A DNA stretch of 64,000 bases, from contig CAMCIK010000004.1 in NCBI GenBank assembly GCA_945874825.1, positions 4,606-68,605 on the forward strand, read 5' to 3'. The notes under the pieces were generated by a model. It did not search any database. It saw only the letters and a program-made list of their open reading frames with translations, and was not told where the DNA came from. Of the stretch, positions 22,931 through 35,779 are shown piece after piece; position 1 is the stretch's first letter; each line of letters starts with the position of its first letter. This DNA comes from Phenylobacterium deserti. Lineage in GTDB: Bacteria; Pseudomonadota; Alphaproteobacteria; Caulobacterales; Caulobacteraceae. The position numbers were made by a program, and so were the translations under genes.

Positions 22931-23317
22931 TCAGGCCCTTGAGCCGTCCCCGCCAAACACCGCCTCGTAGGTCTCGGGCCTGAAGCCGAGCACCCGCCGA
23001 TCCCCCAGATCGAGCAGGGGGCGTTTGATCATCGAGGGCTGGGCCACCATCAGGGCTATGGCCTTGGCCGCGTCGAGATCAGTCCGGTCGGCTTCGGGCA
23101 GTTTGCGGAAGGTCGTGCCTGCGCGGTTCAGGACCTTTTCCCAGCCCAGTTCCTCAACCCACTGACCCAGACGATCAGCGTCAATGCCTTGGGTCTTGTA
23201 GTCATGAAAGTCATAGGCGATGCCTCGGTCCGCCAGCCAGGCGCGGGCCTTGGCCACCGTGTCGCAGGCCTTGATGCCATAGAGGGTGGCGGCGGGGATG
23301 AGGGTGGGCAGTCGCAT
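22931..23317 (-). CDS. ArsC/Spx/YffB family reductase-like protein
   Basis: Only the last 128 codons of track ORF 22931..23917 look real. MRLPT...LYGIKACDT...FHDY...MIKRPLL is the YffB/ArsC-family pattern. Confidence 0.8.
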   Translation of the reverse strand: MRLPTLIPAATLYGIKACDTVAKARAWLADRGIAYDFHDYKTQGIDADRLGQWVEELGWEKVLNRAGTTFRKLPEADRTDLDAAKAIALMVAQPSMIKRPLLDLGDRRVLGFRPETYEAVFGGDGSRA

Positions 23318-23340
23318 CAGGGAGCTCCGGGGGGATGGTC

Positions 23341-23718
23341 TCAGGCCGTGGTCACGAAGGTCTCGGATTCGATCATCCACTGACCCGTGACCCGGCGCCA
23401 GACCGCGAGGTAGGGACCCGACTGGGACGGAGCATCCTTCCAGCTCGCCGTCCAGCGGCCCTGCTCGGCGGCGCGATCTCCCGCTGCATCCACCTCGATG
23501 TGCTCGGGCGTGCGGACATAGCCGCCGAAGCCGGGGTCTGCGAACTGGGCGGCGAAGGCAGAGAGGATGGCGTCTCGGCCGGTGATGACCGATCCGTCGC
23601 CGGCGATGACCACCGCCGCGGGCAGGAAGACCGGCCCGAGGCGCGCGGCCTCCCGCCCGGCGATGAACCGGTTGCTCAGCCGCCGCCGGGCGCGAATGGC
23701 GTCTTCGGGGGGGATCAC
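23341..23718 (-). CDS. SnoaL-like / DUF4440 (NTF2-fold) protein
   Basis: 125 aa. The pattern ...G.W.ASW....G.YLAVWRR..G.W.I is typical of DUF4440. The start overlaps the upstream stop. Confidence 0.6.
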   Translation of the reverse strand: MIPPEDAIRARRRLSNRFIAGREAARLGPVFLPAAVVIAGDGSVITGRDAILSAFAAQFADPGFGGYVRTPEHIEVDAAGDRAAEQGRWTASWKDAPSQSGPYLAVWRRVTGQWMIESETFVTTA

Positions 23719-24704
23719 GACCCGAAGGGCTCGACCACGACCGTGCCGGCCTTGGTCCCGGACTCCACCTGCTCATGGGCAGCCGCGCAGTCCGCCAGGG
23801 CATGGCGGCCGGCCACGGGCAGGAGCCGGGCACCCGTGGAGATCCATTGCAGGATGTCGGCCTGGGCCCGGCGGCGGGCCTCGTGCGGGCTGACCGGCAG
23901 GTAGACGCCGTGGACATTGAGGTTGAGGCGCATCAGCTCCCCGGCCGGGACCGTCGGCGAGGGCTCGCCCTTCGTCGCGTAGAAGGCCACTGACCCATTG
24001 CCCTTCATGCAGGCCAGGGTGGCGGCCAGGTTGCCGCCGAAGTCCACGTCGACCACATGGTCCACCCCGGCGCCGCCAGTGAAGTCCCGGACCCGGGCGG
24101 CGACATCCTCCGAGCGGTAGTTGACGACCAGGTCGGCGCCCGCCGCCTGCGCCCTGGCTGCCTTGGCCTCGCTGCTGACGGTGGCGATGACCGTGGCTCC
24201 CGCCCACCTGGCCAGCTGGACGGCGTAGAGGCCCACCGCACCGGCACCCCCGGTGACCAGGACGGTCCGTCCCTGCACGGGTCCGGCGACGAAGACGCTG
24301 CGGTGGGCGGTCATGCAGGGAATGCCCAGGGTCGCGCCCTCTGAGAAGGATACGGCGTCGGGAAGGGGCGTCACGAGGTCGGCGTCGAGCTCGATGTATT
24401 CCGCCGCCGAGCCAAAGGCCCGGCCGTTCCTCTGACCGTTGTAGAACCAGACCCGGCGGCCGAGCCAGCGGGCCGGCGTCTCCGGGCCTACGGCCTCGAC
24501 CACTCCGGCACCGTCGCTGTTCGGGATGATGCGCGGATAGGCCATGGGGGCGGGACCGGCCCGCATGCCGGCGTCCGAGGGGTTGACCCCGGAGGCGTGG
24601 ATGCGGATCAGCACCTGCCCCCGGCCAGGGCTCGGGGTGGGAACCTCGCCGTGCTGCAGGACCTCCCGGGCAGGGCCGGTGCGCTCGTACCAGACCGCCT
24701 TCAT
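23715..24704 (-). CDS. NADPH:quinone oxidoreductase (MDR, zeta-crystallin type)
   Basis: 329 aa. GVNPSD and the VLVTGGAGAVG Rossmann motif. Confidence 0.85.
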   Translation of the reverse strand: MKAVWYERTGPAREVLQHGEVPTPSPGRGQVLIRIHASGVNPSDAGMRAGPAPMAYPRIIPNSDGAGVVEAVGPETPARWLGRRVWFYNGQRNGRAFGSAAEYIELDADLVTPLPDAVSFSEGATLGIPCMTAHRSVFVAGPVQGRTVLVTGGAGAVGLYAVQLARWAGATVIATVSSEAKAARAQAAGADLVVNYRSEDVAARVRDFTGGAGVDHVVDVDFGGNLAATLACMKGNGSVAFYATKGEPSPTVPAGELMRLNLNVHGVYLPVSPHEARRRAQADILQWISTGARLLPVAGRHALADCAAAHEQVESGTKAGTVVVEPFGS

Positions 24705-27151: not shown

Positions 27152-27670
27152 TCAGAGGGTCAGGGCCGCCACGACCTGGTCGACAACGGCCTGCGCCTTG
27201 GCGCGCATTTCGTCATCGGTGGCATCCTGGATCGGGTGATCCACCAGAAGGTAGCGCGCACCCTCCATGCCCAGCGCCCGGCGCTGGACCTCGGCGGCCT
27301 CAGCGAACTCGCTGGAGGCGATGGAGACGGCGGGAAGCCCCTGGATTTCGAACCATACAGTGTCGTGCAGACTGCACGTCGTGCAGGATCCTCAATCGGC
27401 GAGGGCTTCCACCAGGACGCTGCACTCCGCCTTGATCTTCAGCCGCAGGTCCGTGGGACAGGGCTTTGTGAAGGTCGGCTTGGCGTAGCGTCGGATCTCA
27501 TTGTCCGGGAAGCGGGCGGCCAGCAGGCGCTCCAGCTCGTCCAGGAGCACATTACCCCGGGGCTTGCTGATGTCCAGAAGGCCGATCACGCCCGGGATGC
27601 TTCCTGTTCGTGGAGTGATCTGGCGCTCGACGGGCACACGCTCGTCGGTCGGATCCAGGATTGTGGTCAT
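27152..27670 (-). CDS. UGSC-motif selenoprotein (172 codons, Sec at codon 93 encoded by UGA 27394..27392)
   Basis: Track ORF 27392..27670 stops at TGA. The same frame stays open for 79 more codons (GSCTTCSLHDTVWFEIQGLPAVSIASSEFAEAAEVQRRALGMEGARYLLVDHPIQDATDDEMRAKAQAVVDQVVAALTL) to TGA 27154..27152. GGAGGA SD lies 6 nt before the ATG. Hairpins follow the UGA, and selB, tRNA-Sec and selA are adjacent. Confidence 0.75.
27362..27394 (-). promoter_or_regulatory. UGA plus candidate bacterial SECIS hairpin(s)
   Basis: mRNA reads UGA GGAUC CUGCAC GAC GUGCAG UCUGCACGAC. Two alternative stems are possible: CUGCAC/GUGCAG (3-nt loop), or CGUGC/GCACG with loop AGUCU carrying a G-U about 22 nt after the UGA. 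Confidence 0.55.
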
Positions 27671-27701
27671 CGATGTCCTCCGAATTCCGGAATTGAGGCT
27701 A

Positions 27702-29288
27702 TCAGCAGTCGATCTTCCTGGAAACGACCGTTGAACCCATGGCGCCCGTGACCCAGCCGTGGAAGGCGGCCGAGAACTTCCCCGCCTCAGAACCCGCCAC
27801 GACGATGTGGATGTACTTGCCGTCGGCGAACTTCGGCACCGGAGTCGCGAGCATCTCCGCAGTCATCTTGGCGGCGGAGGCGACCGGGATCCCGGCGCCG
27901 GAGACGTCGTTGGACACCATCTCCCTCAGCGGCCTTGAGGTGACCTCCTGGATGCGGGCGCGGAGCCGGTCCTTGGGATAGGCCCCGTCGACGGTCAGCG
28001 TGTTGATATGCTCCGGACAGACCACCAGCAGGGCGTCCACGGGCATCCGGTGGATCTTGGGCAGGAACATGCCCTCCAGGCCCAGGCCCAGGGTCCCGGC
28101 GATCTGGTCGGGCCGGCGGGACTCCTGGTCGACGATCTGCACCGGGCCACTGGTCATGGCGAAGGCGGTGACTACCGAGTCCTCGCGCTGGAAGCCACGC
28201 TCCACGTGGAGGGGATCCCAGGGCGAGCCCTCCTCCCACTCGGCGAAGCACATGGTGAACTTCATGGGGCTGGAAAGGGTCGAGCGGTCGACGCCCCCGG
28301 GACGGGCCCCGCCAAGGTTGCGGACGACCAGGCGAAGCGCGCGGCCGATGGTGGCGTTGGCGCGGTTGCCGGCGCCCAGGGCGGCCAGCTTCATGTTCAT
28401 GCCGATCCGATGCCGGATCGGGCCGTTGACCACCAGGACGGGCGAGGCCCCCATGGTGGTGGCATTGACCCCATGCATGTTGAATTCGTCCGTACACACC
28501 GCCTCCAGGGCGGCGATCACCACGGGCAGGTATTCCGGCCGGCATCCGGCCATCACGGCGTTGATGGCCACCTTTTCCACCGTGGCCGGGGCCATGTTGG
28601 GCGGCACGATGGCGACAATGTCCTGCGGGTCCCGTGTCGTGCCCGCCAGCATGCGGATCACCCGCTCCGGCGTCGGCGGGACCAGGGGCAGGCCATCGCT
28701 GAAGCCCTGGTCGAACAGGAACTCGTCGATGTCGTCGGAACCGGCGATCTCGATGCGGCGAGCCCGGATCGGACTGCCCTCGGCCTCGGCCACCAGACGG
28801 TCATGGATGCCGGGATCGAGATGCTTGGAGCCGCACCCCGGCCGCCAGTCCGGCAGTCCGGTCCAGTCCACCTGGGGCACCGGCGTCCCGAGCGCCTCGG
28901 AAACCTGCGCGGACAGGGCCTGCCACTCGGCCTTGACGAAGCCCTCCATCACAGGGGCCGTCGCCCCCTCGGTGCCCGTCCAGAAGACTGCCGGAACGCT
29001 CTCGAAGTCCCAGGCCAGGGAGGTCCGCAGGGCACCGTCGTCGAGGATGGGCAGGGTCAGGCCGTGGCGATCGCGCAGGATCTCGGCTCCGTCCCGGGCC
29101 TGGGCGACCATCCAGACGTCGGCATGTTCGCCCCAGGCCTGATGAAAGGCCTCCAGCAGGGGCGCAACGAGGTTGCAGGTGGCGCAGTCCTCCTTGGCAA
29201 AGCAGATGAGGCTCGGCCGACCCGTGGGAAAGCTCCGCGATGTGCCGCCGAGGTCCTGGAGCGTGAAGGCGGGCGGGGTGTCGGTCAT
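27702..29288 (-). CDS. thioredoxin-fold (TlpA/redoxin-like, CxxC) domain fused to a ~390-aa domain of unknown function
   Basis: 528 aa. The N-terminus FTLQDLGG...SLICFAKEDCATCNLVAPLLEAF fits the redoxin pattern with C-A-T-C. I cannot assign the remainder (..DGLPLVPPTPERVIRML..AINAVMAGC..NMHGVNATTMG..) to a family. Confidence 0.8.
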   Translation of the reverse strand: MTDTPPAFTLQDLGGTSRSFPTGRPSLICFAKEDCATCNLVAPLLEAFHQAWGEHADVWMVAQARDGAEILRDRHGLTLPILDDGALRTSLAWDFESVPAVFWTGTEGATAPVMEGFVKAEWQALSAQVSEALGTPVPQVDWTGLPDWRPGCGSKHLDPGIHDRLVAEAEGSPIRARRIEIAGSDDIDEFLFDQGFSDGLPLVPPTPERVIRMLAGTTRDPQDIVAIVPPNMAPATVEKVAINAVMAGCRPEYLPVVIAALEAVCTDEFNMHGVNATTMGASPVLVVNGPIRHRIGMNMKLAALGAGNRANATIGRALRLVVRNLGGARPGGVDRSTLSSPMKFTMCFAEWEEGSPWDPLHVERGFQREDSVVTAFAMTSGPVQIVDQESRRPDQIAGTLGLGLEGMFLPKIHRMPVDALLVVCPEHINTLTVDGAYPKDRLRARIQEVTSRPLREMVSNDVSGAGIPVASAAKMTAEMLATPVPKFADGKYIHIVVAGSEAGKFSAAFHGWVTGAMGSTVVSRKIDC

Positions 29289-29333
29289 GGATCCGTCCTC
29301 AGGGTCGCAAGGCTACCGGCCCGGAGGCCGGGC

Positions 29334-29428
29334 TGGCGGAGGTGGATGGGAATCGAACCCACCACACGCCGGTGAGGCGTGTCACCGGTTTTGAAGACCG
29401 GGGAAGCCACCAGACTCCAGTCACCTCC
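29334..29428 (-). tRNA. selC: tRNA-Sec (anticodon UCA)
   Basis: 95 nt: GGAGGTGACTGGAGTCTGGTGGCTTCCCCGGTCTTCAAAACCGGTGACACGCCTCACCGGCGTGTGGTGGGTTCGATTCCCATCCACCTCCGCCA. Anticodon loop CTTCAAA (TCA = 29394..29392), long variable arm ACACGCC/GGCGTGT, GTTCGATTCC T-loop, encoded CCA. Confidence 0.9.
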
Positions 29429-29441
29429 ATCGCCCGCAACA

Positions 29442-31382
29442 CTAGTGCGGGATCGGCGGCGTACCGAAGCGCTTTCTTTGGGTGACGACCTGGCGGGAGT
29501 CCCCACGACGGACTGTATCCCCCCGGGAGTCGAGGAACTCCAGGGCCGGGACGATGAACTTGCGGGAGGTGGAAAGGGCCGCCCGGGCCTCGCCGGTAGT
29601 GAATTCCGCCGGCGGCGGGAAGGCCGCCTCCAGGTCCGAAAGGGCGGCGTCCAGGGCCTCTATGTGGAAGACCAGGGTCTGGCGCAGGGCGTGGTTGCGC
29701 AGGGAGACCAACCGTCCGGACTCCACCAGCAAGCCGAGGAGAACTGCGGACTCCCCCTCGGCGACGAGGCCGGCGGCGTCCGGCGGGTTCATGCCGCCCT
29801 CCCGCAGGGCGGTCTCGATCTCCCCGAGGCGGGACAGCTGGGCCGGCGACAGGGCGGCGAAGGGGTCATGGTCCTTCAGGGCCGCCTGGCCGCGCACGAT
29901 CCGGATCCCGCCCTCGGCGACGAGCCGACCCTCCACATGGGCGATGAGGTCCCGGGACAGGATTCGTTGCAGGCCGCCACGAAGGGCACCGAGGGCGACG
30001 AAGGCCCGGGTCGGCTGGGCCCGGTGGGCGTCGGCCAGCCGGTCGAGATAGGCCTGAGCGGCCGCCTCCACGGCGGACTCCTGTGCAAAGAGGCCGTCGT
30101 CGAGGCGAACAAGCCTCTCAGCCAGTCGCGAGCGGACCTCTTCGATGGGCGCGCGCGAAAGACAGGCCGCCTCGGCCACGGACACCGCACCGCCGTCCCG
30201 CCCGGCGAGGGCTGCGGCGATGTCCTCCAACCCGCCCTGTACGACAGCGAGCAGGAGGTCGCGGCGGGCCTCCAGGGTCCGGGCCCGGAGCTGGGGGGCG
30301 ACGGGGTCCAGCACCCGGCCGCCGCCCAGGGTCCCGGCGGGCGAGGGCCGGCGGAGCAGGAGGCGCTGGCCGGCATGGGCGGGGACGGGGCCACTGAAGC
30401 GGAGCTGGACCAGACCCGAAGATCCGGGCTCCAGTGGGGCCCCGCCAATGAGGCGCGCCCGGGCAAGGTCCTGGCGTGCGCCCCAGAGCACGCGCACCTC
30501 GTCCCCGGATCGAAGTGGCCGGGCAGCCTCCGGCGAGAGATCGACCTCCAAATCCACCCTCACTGTCGGCGGAAAGCTGCCGGGGCTGCAAAGGACCTCG
30601 CCGACCCTCACCTCGTCCGGCGAGACCCCGCGCAGGGCCGCCGCGGCCCGGCCGCCGGCGGGTGCCGTCGGGACCGCCTGGCCATGGACCTGCAGCTGGC
30701 GCAGGTGGACCGTGCGGCCGGAGGGCTCCAGGACCGCCTCGTCCCCCACTTCGAGGTCCCCACCCTGCAGGGAGCCGGTAACCACGGTTCCCGTTCCGGC
30801 CAGGCTGAAGACCCGGTCGAGGGGCAGGAAGGCGCCGGGCAGGCGCTCAGGCGGGGGGGTCCGGAGGGCCAGGGCGTGGATCTCGCGGTTGAGGGTCCCA
30901 AGCCCCTCCCCGGTCACGGCCGAGCAGAAGACGACGGGTGCCGTCGCCAGGAAGCTTTCTTCCAGTTCGGCCATCAGCCGGGCCCGGAGGTCAGTGCGCG
31001 CCTCCGGCGGGACGAGGTCAGCCTTGGTCACGGCCACCAGACCGTCCCTGAGGCCCAGGAGGCTAGCGATCCTGAGATGCTCGCGGGTCTGCCGGCCGAA
31101 GCCCTCAACCGCGGAAACCACCAGCAGGACTGCCCGGGCACCGGCGGCGCCCATGACCATGGCGCGGATGAAGTCCTCGTGGCCGGGAGCGTCCAGGAAG
31201 TCGACGTCACCGTCAGGGTCCTCGCGGAAGGCGAAGCCCAGGGCGATGGAGAGGCCCCTCGCCTTCTCCTCCGGCAGCCGGTCCGTCTCCATGCCGGTCA
31301 GGGCGCGGACCAGGGCCGTCTTGCCGTGGTTGACGTGCCCGATCACCGCCAGGCCAAGGGGTGGAGGCGGGGCGGCGGTCAC
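29442..31382 (-). CDS. selB: selenocysteine-specific translation elongation factor SelB
   Basis: 646 aa. GTPase motifs GHVNHGKT, DAPGHEDF and TKAD, followed by long winged-helix-type C-terminal extensions. Adjacent to tRNA-Sec and selA. Confidence 0.9.
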   Translation of the reverse strand: MTAAPPPPLGLAVIGHVNHGKTALVRALTGMETDRLPEEKARGLSIALGFAFREDPDGDVDFLDAPGHEDFIRAMVMGAAGARAVLLVVSAVEGFGRQTREHLRIASLLGLRDGLVAVTKADLVPPEARTDLRARLMAELEESFLATAPVVFCSAVTGEGLGTLNREIHALALRTPPPERLPGAFLPLDRVFSLAGTGTVVTGSLQGGDLEVGDEAVLEPSGRTVHLRQLQVHGQAVPTAPAGGRAAAALRGVSPDEVRVGEVLCSPGSFPPTVRVDLEVDLSPEAARPLRSGDEVRVLWGARQDLARARLIGGAPLEPGSSGLVQLRFSGPVPAHAGQRLLLRRPSPAGTLGGGRVLDPVAPQLRARTLEARRDLLLAVVQGGLEDIAAALAGRDGGAVSVAEAACLSRAPIEEVRSRLAERLVRLDDGLFAQESAVEAAAQAYLDRLADAHRAQPTRAFVALGALRGGLQRILSRDLIAHVEGRLVAEGGIRIVRGQAALKDHDPFAALSPAQLSRLGEIETALREGGMNPPDAAGLVAEGESAVLLGLLVESGRLVSLRNHALRQTLVFHIEALDAALSDLEAAFPPPAEFTTGEARAALSTSRKFIVPALEFLDSRGDTVRRGDSRQVVTQRKRFGTPPIPH

Positions 31383-31509
31383 CGGATGTGTCCCGGATGG
31401 AGGCGGCGCATGAAGACTCCCTACGTCGAACCGGGGCCGAGGTCATCCGCCTCGCTTGCCCGGCGTCGCCCCGCCTCCCTATAGTCCGGACCGGAGAGGG
31501 AGACGCGTC

Positions 31510-32970
31510 GTGACGCTGAGGACCCCGAAGGCCGCCCGACCGGACCCCCGCCGCCGCCTCCCGGCCGTGGGCACCCTCTGTGATGACCCCGTCGCCCGGC
31601 CGCTGAAGGCCCGGTACGGCGCCGCAGCCCTGACCCGCGTCGTCCGCGCCGTCCTGGCCGAGGCCCGGACCCGCCTCGCCGCCTACCCCGACGTCCTGCC
31701 GACGACCGGTGCCCTCCTGGAAGCCGTAGAGGCGCGGTTGGCCGAGGGTGTCCGCGAGACCCTCTTCCCGGTGATCAACGCCACCGGCGTGGTGATCCAC
31801 ACCAATCTCGGCCGGGCACCCCTTGCGCCGGAGGCGATGGCGGCGGTGGCGGCGGCGGCGGGCTACGCCAACCTGGAGCTCGACCTCGACACCGGCCGGA
31901 GGTCCTCACGACAGGCGCACCTCGATCCCCTGATCGCCGAGATGACCGGTGCCGAGGCGGGAATGGCGGTGAACAACTGCGCAGGCGCCGTGCTGCTGGC
32001 CCTGGCCGCAGTGGCGAAAGGGGCACCGGTCATCGTCTCCCGGGGCGAGCTTGTGGAGATTGGCGGCGGCTTCCGCATACCGGACGTGGTGGCCCAGAGC
32101 GGCTCGCGCCTGGTCGAGGTCGGGACCACGAACCGGACCCATCTGCGCGACTACGAGATGGCCCTGGCCGACCATCCGGACGCCCGGGTCCTCCTGCGCA
32201 CCCACCCCAGCAACTTCCGGATCCTGGGCTTCACCAGTGCCCCGTCCCTGGAGAGCCTGGCCCACTTCGCCCATGCCCACGGTCTTCTGCTGGTGGAAGA
32301 TCTGGGGGGCGGCGCCCTCGTGGACCTCTCGCCGTTTGGCATCCCGGACGAGCCGACCGTCCAGGCCAGTCTCACGGCGGGCGTGGACCTGGTGCTCATC
32401 AGTGGGGACAAGCTGCTGGGCGGGCCCCAGGCCGGCATCGCCGCCGGGCGCCGGGCCCTTGTCGACCAGCTGGAGGCCCACCCCCTGGCCCGGGCCCTGC
32501 GGCTGGACAAGCTGTCGGCGGCCGCCCTCGCCGCCACCCTGCGGCTCTATCGCCCACCGTCCGACCCCTTCCAGCGGATTCCCGTCCTGCGCCTGCTGGC
32601 CCAGGACGCCGGAACGCTGAGTGCCCGGGCGAAGGACCTCAGGGCGCGGGTCGAAGGTCTTGCGGACCTCGAGACGGAGATCATCGACACCGAGGGCTTT
32701 GCCGGCGGCGGGGCCCTGCCCATGCGGGCCCTGCCTGGCCGGGCCCTCGCCCTCAGCCACCTGCGTTTCAGCGCAGAAGACCTCGCGCTTCGCCTGCGCA
32801 CCGGACCAACCCGGGTGCTGGGACGGATCGAGCAGGACCGGGTCCTCATCGACCTGCGGACCGTCGACGACGCAGAGGTTCCGGCCCTGGCCGAGGCGAT
32901 CGGCGCGGCGGCGGGGGAAATCAGCGACCTTGTGCGACGTTGTCCCGAGGTGCCCCCTTCCCTCGCCTGA
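31510..32970 (+). CDS. selA: L-seryl-tRNA(Sec) selenium transferase SelA
   Basis: VINATGVVIHTNLGRAPL and the PLP-lysine region ISGDKLLGGPQAG. Track ORF starts at TTG 31456. GTG 31510 has GGAGAGGGAG 8-10 nt upstream, so the start is uncertain. Confidence 0.9.
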   Translation: MTLRTPKAARPDPRRRLPAVGTLCDDPVARPLKARYGAAALTRVVRAVLAEARTRLAAYPDVLPTTGALLEAVEARLAEGVRETLFPVINATGVVIHTNLGRAPLAPEAMAAVAAAAGYANLELDLDTGRRSSRQAHLDPLIAEMTGAEAGMAVNNCAGAVLLALAAVAKGAPVIVSRGELVEIGGGFRIPDVVAQSGSRLVEVGTTNRTHLRDYEMALADHPDARVLLRTHPSNFRILGFTSAPSLESLAHFAHAHGLLLVEDLGGGALVDLSPFGIPDEPTVQASLTAGVDLVLISGDKLLGGPQAGIAAGRRALVDQLEAHPLARALRLDKLSAAALAATLRLYRPPSDPFQRIPVLRLLAQDAGTLSARAKDLRARVEGLADLETEIIDTEGFAGGGALPMRALPGRALALSHLRFSAEDLALRLRTGPTRVLGRIEQDRVLIDLRTVDDAEVPALAEAIGAAAGEISDLVRRCPEVPPSLA

Positions 32971-33059
32971 GGTGTGGGGACATATGCTCGGCAGGGACCT
33001 GGTCCCAGGCCGCTTCGTGCCGATCACGGGATCAGAGGGGCGTTGTGCCAGAATCCGGG

Positions 33060-34244
33060 ATGTTCCCGCCGACCCGCCAAGCCGCCCTGGAGCGTCTCGC
33101 CGGCTTTGTCCCGGCGGCGGGACGCGCCTATGCGGAGGGGCGAAACCTGGACCCGGGCCCCGGTGAACCGGGCGCGGTCTCGCGGCTTTCCCCCTACCTT
33201 CGCCACAGGGTGATCTCAGAGGCCGAGGTGGTCGATGCGGTCCTGCAGGCCCAGGGTTCCGCCGGTGCGGACAAGTTTATCCAGGAGGTGTTCTGGCGCA
33301 CCTACTGGAAGGGCTGGCTGGAAATGCGGCCTTCCACCTGGTCGCGGTTCCTCGAGGCCCGCGACCGCCAATGGGATGGCCTGGCGGACTCGCGCGCCCT
33401 CGCCGACGCCGAGGCGGGCAGCACCGGCATCGAGGGCTTCGACGACTGGGCCCGCGAACTCGCCCAGACCGGATACCTGCACAATCATGCGCGCATGTGG
33501 TTCGCCTCGATCTGGATCTTCACCCTGCGCCTGCCCTGGGCCCTGGGGGCGGATCTCTTCCTCCGCCGGCTCGTCGACGCCGACCCGGCCAGCAACACCC
33601 TGTCCTGGCGGTGGGTCGCGGGCCTCCAGACCCCGGGAAAGACCTACCTGGCGACCCGGGAGAATATCGCCCGCTTCACCGGGGGCCGCTTTGCGCCCTC
33701 GGGCCTGGCGACGCAGGCCCCTCCCCTGGTGGAGCCCGCGCCCGAACCCCCGGCGGGCCTTCCTTCCGCCGCCAGCACCCCGCCTCCGGGACCCTACCTG
33801 TTGCTGACGACGCCGGAGGACCTGACCCCCGACCTCGGAGGGATCGACCCGGCGAGGGCGGCCGCCGCGGTCGTCACGCCGGATCCCCGCCTGTCGTTTG
33901 GCGAGACCGCCCGCGAGTTCATGGCCGGCGCCGCGATGGACGCGGCCGATCGCCTGGCCGGGCGAGTGGAGGGGCCTGTAACCCTCCTGGACCGCCTCGA
34001 CGCTGGGTCCCTGGTCGCGGCAGCCCAGGCGGCGCAGGTGCGGACCCTTGTCACTCCCTATGCGCCTGTAGGCCCCACGGCGGACGCCCTGGCGCAGGCC
34101 GCGCGGGGCCTTGAGGCCGAGGGCCTGCACCTCATCCAGGTCCGCCGGGAATGGGACACCCGCTTCTGGCCCTACGCGACGGCGGGCTTCTTCGCCTTCC
34201 GCAAGCAGATTCCAGCCTTGCTGGAACAAGAGAGGTCCCGGTGA
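33060..34244 (+). CDS. photolyase FAD-binding-domain protein (photolyase-related, atypical domain order)
   Basis: ATG 33060 within track ORF 32940..34244. SRLSPYLRHR...FWRTYWKGW...YLHNHARMWFASIW...NTLSWRWVAG is the photolyase FAD-binding domain, placed at the N-terminus. Confidence 0.65.
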   Translation: MFPPTRQAALERLAGFVPAAGRAYAEGRNLDPGPGEPGAVSRLSPYLRHRVISEAEVVDAVLQAQGSAGADKFIQEVFWRTYWKGWLEMRPSTWSRFLEARDRQWDGLADSRALADAEAGSTGIEGFDDWARELAQTGYLHNHARMWFASIWIFTLRLPWALGADLFLRRLVDADPASNTLSWRWVAGLQTPGKTYLATRENIARFTGGRFAPSGLATQAPPLVEPAPEPPAGLPSAASTPPPGPYLLLTTPEDLTPDLGGIDPARAAAAVVTPDPRLSFGETAREFMAGAAMDAADRLAGRVEGPVTLLDRLDAGSLVAAAQAAQVRTLVTPYAPVGPTADALAQAARGLEAEGLHLIQVRREWDTRFWPYATAGFFAFRKQIPALLEQERSR

Positions 34245-35779
34245 GCCGTCCCCTGCAGGTCGTCTGGTTCAAGCGCGACCTGCGCATCGCCGACCACCGC
34301 CCTCTGGCCCTCGCCGCCGAAGCCGGGCCGGTGCTGCCCCTCTACATTGTTGAGCCAGGGCTCTGGGCCCAGGCGGACGCCTCAGGAAGGCAGTGGGCCT
34401 TTGCAGCGGAATGCCTCGGCGAGTTGGCGGCTTCGCTGGCCCAGCTGGGCCAGCCCCTGCGGGTCGAGGTCGGCGAGGCGCTGAAGGTGCTGGGCCGGAT
34501 TCACGAGCGTCACGGTATCGCCGGCCTCTGGAGCCACGAGGAGACTGGAAACGGCTGGACCTACGCTCGGGACCTGGCCGTTGGCGCCTGGTCGAAGGCG
34601 GCTGGTATCCCCTGGCGCGAGGAACGCCAGTTCGGTGTGATCCGCCGCCTGAAGTCGAGGAATGGCTGGGCCCAGGCCTGGGACCGGGACATGTCCAGGC
34701 CGCTGACGCCCTCGCCCGAGGCGCTTGTTCCCCTCGGCGGCGACTGGCCGGGTCGCATTCCATCAGCGGCCAACCTCGGCCTTGCGTCCGATCCCTGTCC
34801 TCATCGCCAGAAGGGCGGGCGCAGTGCTGCGCTGGAGGTTCTGGACAGCTTCCTCTCCTGGCGCGGCCGCGACTACCGCCGGGAGATGTCGAGCCCGCTC
34901 ACGGCCTACGGGTCCAGTTCGCGGCTCTCGCCCCACCTCACCTGGGGAACGATCTCCATGCGGGAAGTCGCCCAGGCCACCTGGGCGCACCAGCGGGGGC
35001 TCCGGACGTCGAGCGCACCCGACGCCGGACTGTGGCGGGGGTCCCTGGCCTCTTTCTCGGGACGCCAGCACTGGCGTTGTCACTTCGTCCAGAAGCTGGA
35101 GGACGAGCCCCGAATCGAGTTCGAGAACCTGCACCGCGCCTACGACGGCGTGCGCCCCAGCCAGGCTGATCCTGACCGCCTAGAGGCCTGGAGCCAGGGC
35201 CTGACCGGCTATCCCTTCCTCGACGCCTGCATGCGGGCGCTGGACGCCCATGGCTGGATCAACTTCCGCATGCGCGCCATGCTGATGTCCTTCGCCAGCT
35301 ATCACCTCTGGCTTCCCTGGCGGGAGAGCGGCCTGCACCTGGCGCGGAAGTTCGTGGACTATGAGGCGGGAATCCACTGGCCCCAGGTACAAATGCAGTC
35401 CGGCACGACGGGCATCAATACCCTCCGGATCTACAACCCCGTAAAGCAGGGCCACGATCAGGATCCCAAAGGTACCTTCGTCCGGGCCTGGGTTCCCGAG
35501 CTTGCGGCCGTCCCGGACGCCTTCGTCCATGAGCCCTGGCGATGGGAGGGGGCGGCGGACCTTGCCTATCCCGCCCCGATCGTCGAGAATGCTTCCGCGA
35601 TGCGGGCGGCCCGGGAAGCCCTTCACGCTCTGCGGCGCGACAGCCGCCACAAGGGCGCGGCACGGGTCATCGCCGCCCGCCACGGAAGCCGAAAGTCCGG
35701 TTTGCCAGGGGCGGGGGACCGCCGGCGGGGCCGGGCCAAGCCCGCTGAAGGCGTCCAGCTGTTGCTGAACCTCGAATAG
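34241..35779 (+). CDS. cryptochrome/photolyase family protein
   Basis: GTG 34241 overlaps the upstream stop (GTGA). VVWFKRDLRIADHRPL N-terminal alpha/beta domain, later SRLSPHLTWGTIS and FVDYEAGIHW..QMQSG motifs. Confidence 0.8.
   Translation: MSRPLQVVWFKRDLRIADHRPLALAAEAGPVLPLYIVEPGLWAQADASGRQWAFAAECLGELAASLAQLGQPLRVEVGEALKVLGRIHERHGIAGLWSHEETGNGWTYARDLAVGAWSKAAGIPWREERQFGVIRRLKSRNGWAQAWDRDMSRPLTPSPEALVPLGGDWPGRIPSAANLGLASDPCPHRQKGGRSAALEVLDSFLSWRGRDYRREMSSPLTAYGSSSRLSPHLTWGTISMREVAQATWAHQRGLRTSSAPDAGLWRGSLASFSGRQHWRCHFVQKLEDEPRIEFENLHRAYDGVRPSQADPDRLEAWSQGLTGYPFLDACMRALDAHGWINFRMRAMLMSFASYHLWLPWRESGLHLARKFVDYEAGIHWPQVQMQSGTTGINTLRIYNPVKQGHDQDPKGTFVRAWVPELAAVPDAFVHEPWRWEGAADLAYPAPIVENASAMRAAREALHALRRDSRHKGAARVIAARHGSRKSGLPGAGDRRRGRAKPAEGVQLLLNLE

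Follow-up and report, generated by a model that had tools for sequence, protein, structure and literature searches.

What do the UGSC selenoproteins do, and with which partner? UGSC is a catalogued selenoprotein family listed as 'function unknown' (PMC1976440, PMC2398784, PMC9312934, PMC13188914), a status that dates from the mid-2000s (PMC1976440, PMC2398784, PMC13188914). Hyphomonas neptunium is among the reported carriers of UGSC (PMC1976440). The question is raised by a 64,000-nt stretch of the Phenylobacterium deserti contig CAMCIK010000004.1 (the window, meaning the whole stretch analyzed). Its UGSC-family gene (27152..27670, minus strand) is preceded by a gene for a 528-aa protein (27702..29288, minus strand, stop codon included), in which a thioredoxin (Trx)-like domain is followed by a large domain, here called domain X. 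The original prediction named this protein the prime candidate for the partner or catalytic subunit of the UGSC protein, and the partnership is now strongly supported. We found a near-obligate pairing of X with UGSC and, in some proteins, a fusion of the two. In our judgement, the 528-aa protein and UGSC are probably two subunits of one cytoplasmic, selenocysteine (Sec)-dependent reductase.

Domain X and UGSC are near-obligately paired

X loci were collected with one genome per species, and the best 80 of at least 589 confirmed loci (46–98% identity) were inspected. UGSC was located directly downstream of X on the same strand in 74 of these 80 loci, and a 75th locus was cut by the contig end. 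The 80 loci spanned Alpha-, Beta- and Gammaproteobacteria, Acidobacteriota, Chloroflexota, Actinomycetota, Myxococcota, Binatota and others. Most belonged to aerobic aquatic or soil lineages, for example Phenylobacterium, Henriciella, Pseudohongiella, Acidimicrobiia and Vicinamibacteria.

The pairing was also followed in the other direction. Among metagenomic contigs matching a DNA pattern for A-D-TGA-G-S-C-T-x-C, with the TGA required, 93 loci proved to be true UGSC loci and had 300 nt or more of upstream sequence. X was immediately upstream in 85 of these 93 Sec-UGSC loci, separated from UGSC by a median of 23 nt. Two further loci had X about 2.1 kb away. A C-terminal domain from a known, self-sufficient family, together with no co-occurrence with UGSC, had been named as grounds for giving up the partnership; neither was found.

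X and UGSC also occurred on single polypeptides in both orders. UGSC–X fusions were represented by P0264, P0194, P0248 and P0445, with P0194 and P0248 being Cys-containing forms. The X–UGSC fusions P0158 and P0405 ended exactly at the Sec codon. A 'UGSC/Unknown_1' fusion selenoprotein is described in the 2008 Global Ocean Sampling paper of Zhang and Gladyshev, in which Unknown_1 is a conserved domain with conserved Cys that is also found alone in aquatic organisms (PMC2398784). 'UGSC/Unknown_1' probably corresponds to the X–UGSC fusions. That paper makes no mention of near-obligate operon pairing, of fusions to Trx, thioredoxin reductase (TrxB) or ferredoxin:thioredoxin reductase (FTR) modules, or of the absence of structural relatives (PMC2398784).

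The pairing was independent of the Trx domain, because stand-alone and tandem X proteins also adjoined UGSC. The stand-alone X proteins P0279 and P0311 (~360 aa) were each followed by a Sec-split UGSC gene. For the tandem X–X protein P0392, a full-length UGSC-family gene was located 360 nt upstream in the same gene cluster. The full-length UGSC gene beside the tandem X–X protein is probably a Cys form. In addition, locus L206 (8001–14990) carried two X–UGSC pairs in one region, one with a Trx-fused X and one with a stand-alone X of 374 aa.

Several loci had additional genes in or around the pair. The two pairs of L206 lie on either side of an enoyl-CoA hydratase/3-hydroxyacyl-CoA dehydrogenase gene, and X and UGSC of the first pair have a metallo-beta-lactamase-fold gene, oriented the other way, between them. 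A sulfatase gene was similarly placed in L205. L105 and L138 shared an identical 2,152-nt spacing between X and UGSC, which in L105 held an unassigned open reading frame (ORF) of ~600 aa. L209 (3980–8157) contained genes for a 718-aa tandem X–X protein, a 335-aa unannotated protein and a full-length, 191-aa UGSC-family protein. TctC-type solute-binding proteins and Rieske oxygenases were also encoded in L209, and these neighbours hint at a possible role of distant X paralogues in the catabolism of organic acids or aromatics.

Architecture of the 528-aa protein and of UGSC

The 528-aa gene was considered real, not a chance ORF in GC-rich DNA, because it has no fewer than 8,000 homologues, with full-length ones at 70–98% identity, and full-length matches (520–550 aa, 46–98% identity) extended across many phyla. 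Its nearest relative among the 80 loci, L001, is a Phenylobacterium metagenome-assembled genome (MAG) contig with 98% identity across the gene. The ORF starts with ATG, and no longer upstream reading is possible, as each listed ORF already begins with the earliest start codon that follows a stop. Two overlapping ORFs on the opposite strand, 28008–29375 (plus strand, 455 aa) and 28000–29142 (plus strand, 380 aa), had no homology support and are by-products of GC-rich DNA.

The full-length protein was modeled with AlphaFold2 using a 129-sequence alignment, giving a predicted local distance difference test score (pLDDT) of 94.8 and a predicted template-modelling score (pTM) of 0.85. Residues 1–133 (28890..29288, minus strand) formed a TlpA/ResA-like thioredoxin fold. 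The first 50 Foldseek matches in the PDB were all of the ResA, StoA, TlpA or DsbE type, with E from 1e-7 to 1e-5 and template-modelling (TM) scores (target) of 0.75–0.83 for the ResA/StoA/TlpA-like ones. The redox motif C35-A-T-C38 (29175..29186, minus strand) immediately preceded helix 1 (residues 36–52) in the model. The D-C-[PAE]-T-C pattern was retained in 108–110 of the 110 homologues that have the Trx domain, and the V98–P99 loop in 120 of 120 sequences. These results agreed with the original prediction of a redoxin-like CxxC domain fused to a large domain.

The sequence matches of this domain were weak. The window protein had no Pfam match at E ≤ 1 and stayed below the Redoxin threshold. 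In NCBIfam it gave weak redoxin matches only, over residues 4–117, with 12.9 bits for ResA against a cut-off of 170. Homologues of 50–60% identity did match Redoxin (PF08534) and AhpC-TSA (PF00578).

The 528-aa protein contained no signal peptide or membrane segment. Its highest Kyte–Doolittle mean over 19 residues was 1.21, and only seven residues come before the first Trx-fold strand, which starts at residue 8. Because the ORF cannot be extended upstream, so few residues precede the first strand and the hydropathy is low, the protein does not qualify as an extracytoplasmic TlpA or ResA. Its Trx-like domain is thus cytoplasmic, unlike that of true TlpA/ResA and as the original prediction had it. 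With TlpA, ResA, CcmG (DsbE) and StoA it shares the thioredoxin fold, a CxxC that opens helix 1 and the invariant V–P loop. However, the latter are single-domain reductants that serve cytochrome maturation or sporulation and are either exported or anchored in the membrane, whereas the window protein is cytoplasmic, falls under every Pfam threshold itself, and has Trx as only a quarter of its length. Homologues are publicly annotated as 'TlpA family protein disulfide reductase'. Since the Trx domain is a quarter of the protein, this name covers a minor, accessory part.

A linker (residues 134–186; 28731..28889, minus strand) with an R-P-G-C152-G-S motif connects the Trx domain to X. C152 (PGCGS; codon 28833–28835) was found in 123 of 123 sequences that have the linker segment. 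The pLDDT of the linker was 93–97 in the full-length model versus 58–71 in a model of the C-terminal part, so that it was ordered only together with the Trx domain, suggesting that it packs on that domain.

The core of domain X comprises residues 187–528 (27705..28730, minus strand). In a full HMMER scan over 1.84 billion cluster representatives, the X family comprised 5,320 clusters (50% identity) with a cut-off of E ≤ 1e-3 and 1,360 with the stricter E ≤ 1e-30. When domain X and 36 family members were compared with Pfam, and domain X and diverse members with NCBIfam, no match was found outside the accessory redox modules. Domain X had no match to PDB sequences either, whether searched as a single sequence or as a 36-sequence profile. 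As full-length Foldseek searches were swamped by thioredoxin folds, residues 135–528 were modeled alone, giving an alpha/beta fold with pLDDT 93.3 and pTM 0.89. Foldseek with this model found nothing at E ≤ 1e-3 in the PDB and BFVD (best E 0.019; TM ~0.2). The original prediction could place residues 140–528 in no family, and Pfam, NCBIfam, PDB sequences and Foldseek likewise gave no match. Judged from the model and within the PDB, BFVD, Pfam and NCBIfam libraries, domain X is an orphan fold.

Weak Foldseek names recurred for X, namely YjgF, IspF, PurM N-domain, RusA, FtsZ C-domain, MotB and Toblerone repeats. We take all of these to share a small beta-alpha-beta-alpha-beta-beta sandwich (SCOP), and the similarity is possibly a sub-domain resemblance, not homology. 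Class I fumarate hydratases and Toblerone-fold cyclic amide hydrolases, which gave the best matches (E 0.02–0.03), were tried as candidates and rejected (E 0.02–0.5, probability ≤0.25, TM 0.14–0.25, root-mean-square deviation 13–18 Å). Comparison of the thirds of X by hhalign revealed no internal repeats and no three-fold repeat.

The X-family motifs TDGLPvvPPT, TVEKvAiNaVMAGC(249), vNGPiR, RANAtIGRA, PEH and vvAGG in the window protein were invariant or nearly so in two alignments, and further motifs were FNxHG, TxC(347)xAE, HVERGF and the longer vvAGGxAGKFS. The subfamily had ~45 invariant residues, many of them charged or polar: D198, E238, K239, N270, H272, T278, R292, R309, N311, R316, N324, E350, E363 and H427. 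Such a dense invariant polar set is typical of an active site, to judge from the alignments. Six cysteines had been flagged earlier as conserved-looking, and only some of them kept this status. C152, C249 and C347 were strongly conserved. C249 (AVMAGC; codon 28542..28544, minus strand) was present in 128 of 129 subfamily sequences and 35 of 36 broad-family sequences, and was also retained in the TrxB–X fusion P0428; no other cysteine persisted across the whole of the broad family. C347 (T-M-C-F-A-E; codon 28248..28250, minus strand) was present in 129/129 and 31/36, respectively. C265 (EAVC) was moderately conserved (110/129), and C424 (VVCPEH) and the terminal C528 were not conserved.

The N-terminal module fused to X varied, and it was always a disulfide-reducing one: TlpA-like Trx, TrxB-like or the FTR catalytic domain. 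Of 46 metagenomic loci whose upstream sequence was long enough, 40 had the TlpA-like Trx domain. In P0428 (L208, 6001–8367), a TrxB-like flavoprotein (PF07992 on residues 5–284, with a C-A-T-C-D site) is fused to an X domain 32% identical to that of the window, and a Sec-truncated UGSC gene follows after 10 nt. In P0154 (L210, 970–2935; also L211 and L212), an FTR catalytic-chain domain (PF02943, 76 bits) is fused to X; the gene order is reversed there, with the Sec-split UGSC gene first and a 5-nt gap. In the UGSC–X fusion proteins, UGSC itself takes the N-terminal place. Upstream of the P0428 gene there was a series of genes for acyl-CoA dehydrogenase, alcohol dehydrogenase (ADH), short-chain dehydrogenase/reductase (SDR), enoyl-CoA hydratase and luciferase-like proteins.

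The UGSC gene of the window encodes 172 aa with the motif A-D-U-G-S-C-T-T-C. It scored 168.5 bits against NCBIfam NF041046 (cut-off 125) and 165.5 bits against Pfam PF24696 (cut-off 25), and PF24696 was its only Pfam match at E ≤ 10. The in-frame TGA (27392..27394, minus strand) encodes Sec at residue 93. All 74 UGSC orthologues had TGA at this position within A-D-U-G-S-C-T-[TS]-C, and the UxxCxxC motif was likewise present in 74 of 74. The Sec assignment was made because the in-frame TGA is conserved. A predicted hairpin directly after the TGA (27350..27391, minus strand) is a candidate bacterial selenocysteine insertion sequence (SECIS) that is backed by its position rather than its energy; its energy was −14.5 kcal/mol, with a z-score of −1.0 against shuffled sequences, which is not significant. 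After U-G-S-C-T-[TS]-C, the 74 orthologues showed the lineage variants S-V-H, S-L-H, S-M-H, C-M-H and C-T-H, so some variants carry a fourth cysteine.

Proposed function of the pair and competing explanations

The strict use of Sec, the UxxCxxC centre and the exchange of one disulfide-reducing module for another together suggested a Sec-dependent reductase fed by dithiol–disulfide exchange. In the mechanism that we propose, reducing equivalents would enter at C35-x-x-C38 of the Trx domain, presumably kept reduced by the cellular thioredoxin reductase. Thiol–disulfide exchange would pass them on, probably through the linker C152 packed against the Trx domain, and then to the U93-x-x-C96-x-x-C99 centre of UGSC. 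The selenol would reduce the substrate in or at an active site of X that may include the family-wide C249, D198, E238, T278, R309, N311, R316, N324 and E350. The selenenylsulfide formed in this step would be recycled by the built-in Trx domain. The conserved arginines in X suggest a small anionic substrate. The pairing, the fusions, the conservation and the exchange of modules are results; we infer which way and in what order the relay runs, catalysis by C249, binding of the substrate by X rather than by UGSC alone, and the nature of the substrate.

In a more specific form of this proposal, X is the catalytic subunit, with a new fold, of a widespread selenoenzyme that carries out a reductive reaction new to enzyme families and is fed by whichever module its lineage has fused to it. 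This form is plausible, and we hold it tentatively, with a little less than even confidence. If it is true, it would explain why many aerobic bacteria from water and soil retain the entire Sec machinery, sometimes as a selA–selB–tRNA-Sec–X–UGSC island, apparently for one client. A near-constant X partner, an orphan fold with enzyme-like conservation and repeated wiring to disulfide-reducing modules turn the question of UGSC function into a defined system of two to three components open to reconstitution. The X family has more than 5,000 clusters and is without a Pfam or NCBIfam model, a name or a structure.

The closest parallel at the motif level is glycine reductase, whose substrate-binding selenoprotein GrdB has a UxxCxxC motif and is recycled through thioredoxin (PMC13188914). 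Glycine and D-proline reductases share with the X–UGSC pair a small or medium-sized UxxCxxC selenoprotein, a separate partner (GrdE or PrdA in those systems) and electrons from the thioredoxin system. The match of UGSC to them is at the motif level only, and no homology was detected: UGSC matched PF24696 only and not the GrdB/PrdB family PF07355, and X had no Pfam match that would tie it to GrdE or PrdA. There was also no evidence that the X–UGSC pair includes a pyruvoyl proprotein of the GrdE/PrdA type. In addition, the glycine and D-proline reductases belong to anaerobic amino-acid fermenters, whereas X–UGSC pairs are found mostly in aerobic aquatic and soil lineages.

Recycling in cis offers another comparison. 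PilB of Neisseria has the layout Trx–MsrA–MsrB with a built-in TlpA-like recycling domain, and AhpF is dedicated to AhpC. In these systems a Trx-like or TrxR-like module is fused or dedicated to a thiol catalytic unit, which it recycles when oxidized, and the X family shows a like logic with its Trx, TrxB-like and FTR-like modules, though no homology to the fused reductases was detectable. The difference is that their catalytic units, methionine sulfoxide reductase and peroxiredoxin, have known folds and substrates, whereas X appears to be an orphan fold and the redox centre is on a separate selenoprotein. A peroxidase of the AhpF/AhpC type was rejected as a candidate: UGSC is not a PF00578 protein, and Pfam found no flavoprotein domain in the window protein, only the distant relative P0428 having one.

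The pairing, the fusions and the interchangeable modules fit equally well with UGSC alone being the effector, for example as a Sec-based peroxidase-like or thiol-repair protein. Trx–X would then be its dedicated recycling reductase or docking subunit in the style of AhpF–AhpC, and X would bind UGSC, not a small molecule. UGSC does carry the sole Sec and the UxxCxxC centre, and X is missing near a few UGSC genes. However, a domain of 340 residues with its large invariant set resembles an active site that binds a ligand more than it does a surface for docking. X also adjoins UGSC where there is no reductase module, indicating that its role is not simply that of a reductase tether, and it has given rise to paralogous pairs and tandem forms, a pattern seen in enzymes with specific substrates. 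This is the main competing explanation and accords with most of the data; we regard it as unlikely. A second alternative makes X a non-redox protein that matures UGSC or handles selenium or sulfur for it, for example by loading, protecting or modifying its Sec/Cys centre, with the redox modules serving only to keep the cysteines of X reduced. Weak, non-significant Foldseek matches of X to the PurM-like proteins SelD (5l16, 3u0o), HypE and ThiL point this way, as does the location of the pair inside a Sec-machinery cluster in the window. Those matches were at noise level, however (E 0.3–2, probability ≤0.13, TM 0.1–0.15), the pair was near sel genes in only 9 of the 80 loci, and the Cys-containing fusions P0194 and P0248 need no selenium handling. 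In bacterial systems, Sec insertion is not known to need a protein-specific maturase. A maturation role for X is thus improbable, considerably more so than a dedicated reductase.

It could also be supposed that the adjacency is incidental and that X is an independent enzyme of unrelated function, since surrounding genes vary by genome and a minority of loci had no partner. This is effectively refuted by three findings: whichever gene is taken as the starting point, co-occurrence is ~92–94% over more than eight phyla; only a few to tens of nucleotides lie between the two genes; and single-polypeptide fusions recur in both orders.

Several points weigh against the two-subunit reductase and the catalytic role of X. 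Both locus sets were biased, the genome set toward best matches and the metagenome set by the required TGA. No partner was found within the available sequence in 5 of the 80 X loci and 6 of the 93 UGSC loci, and no other gene stood out as a partner in the exceptional loci L092, L142 and L105. No third gene was conserved around the X–UGSC pair to point to a pathway or substrate. Acyl-CoA dehydrogenase genes were near the pair in 25 of the 80 loci, with CoA-transferase, SDR and enoyl-CoA hydratase genes occurring sporadically; this signal was judged not clearly above chance, because these families are very abundant in the genomes concerned. The catalytic role proposed for X is drawn only from its conservation pattern, X having no similarity to known enzymes. 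C347 is not universal, being Tyr in P0428. The TrxB–X and FTR–X fusions were each represented by one protein cluster. Finally, the order of the relay (CxxC, C152, C249 and Sec) is a conjecture, the models being of single chains.

The sel gene block and neighbouring genes

The pair belongs to a compact block (27152–32970) consisting of selA, selB, tRNA-Sec, the Trx–X gene and the UGSC gene, and loci L001–L006 and L033 have such a block too. The tRNA-Sec gene (29334..29428, minus strand; ARAGORN; Rfam RF01852, 77 bits) is 45 nt upstream of the 528-aa ORF on the same strand, and 31 nt separate the stop of this ORF from the start of the UGSC gene, placing the protein between tRNA-Sec and UGSC as originally described. 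selB, for the Sec-specific elongation factor (29442..31382, minus strand; Pfam GTP_EFTU, SelB beta-barrel and SelB-wing_3), is upstream of tRNA-Sec. selA, for Sec synthase (31456..32970, plus strand; Pfam SelA, E 9e-130), is divergent from selB, and its listed TTG start may be upstream of the true start. A selD motif search of the window, which is a weak test, gave no match.

The tRNA-Sec gene was also directly upstream of the Trx–X gene in the six closest relatives (L001–L006), and it was only in the window and in the closest relatives, all six included, that selA, selB and tRNA-Sec flanked the pair. The location of the pair among sel genes fits a Sec machinery retained largely for one client. 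One of the six relatives is a MAG that bears the label Candidatus Sulfopaludibacter (Acidobacteriota), with 72% identity. The block looks like a transferable island of 'Sec machinery plus single client', or else this MAG reflects a binning error.

Other genes of the window were also inspected. Directly after selA, two consecutive photolyase/cryptochrome-like genes (32940–35779, plus strand) were found, with listed ORFs that overlap by ~90 nt. One has FAD_binding_7 only, and the other has DNA_photolyase and FAD_binding_7. On the other side of the block, a 328-aa ORF (22931–23917, minus strand) contains an ArsC-family domain in its last ~110 residues only and overlaps a quinone-oxidoreductase-like ORF (23715–24704). 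The true gene at 22931–23917 is probably much shorter than the ORF as listed.

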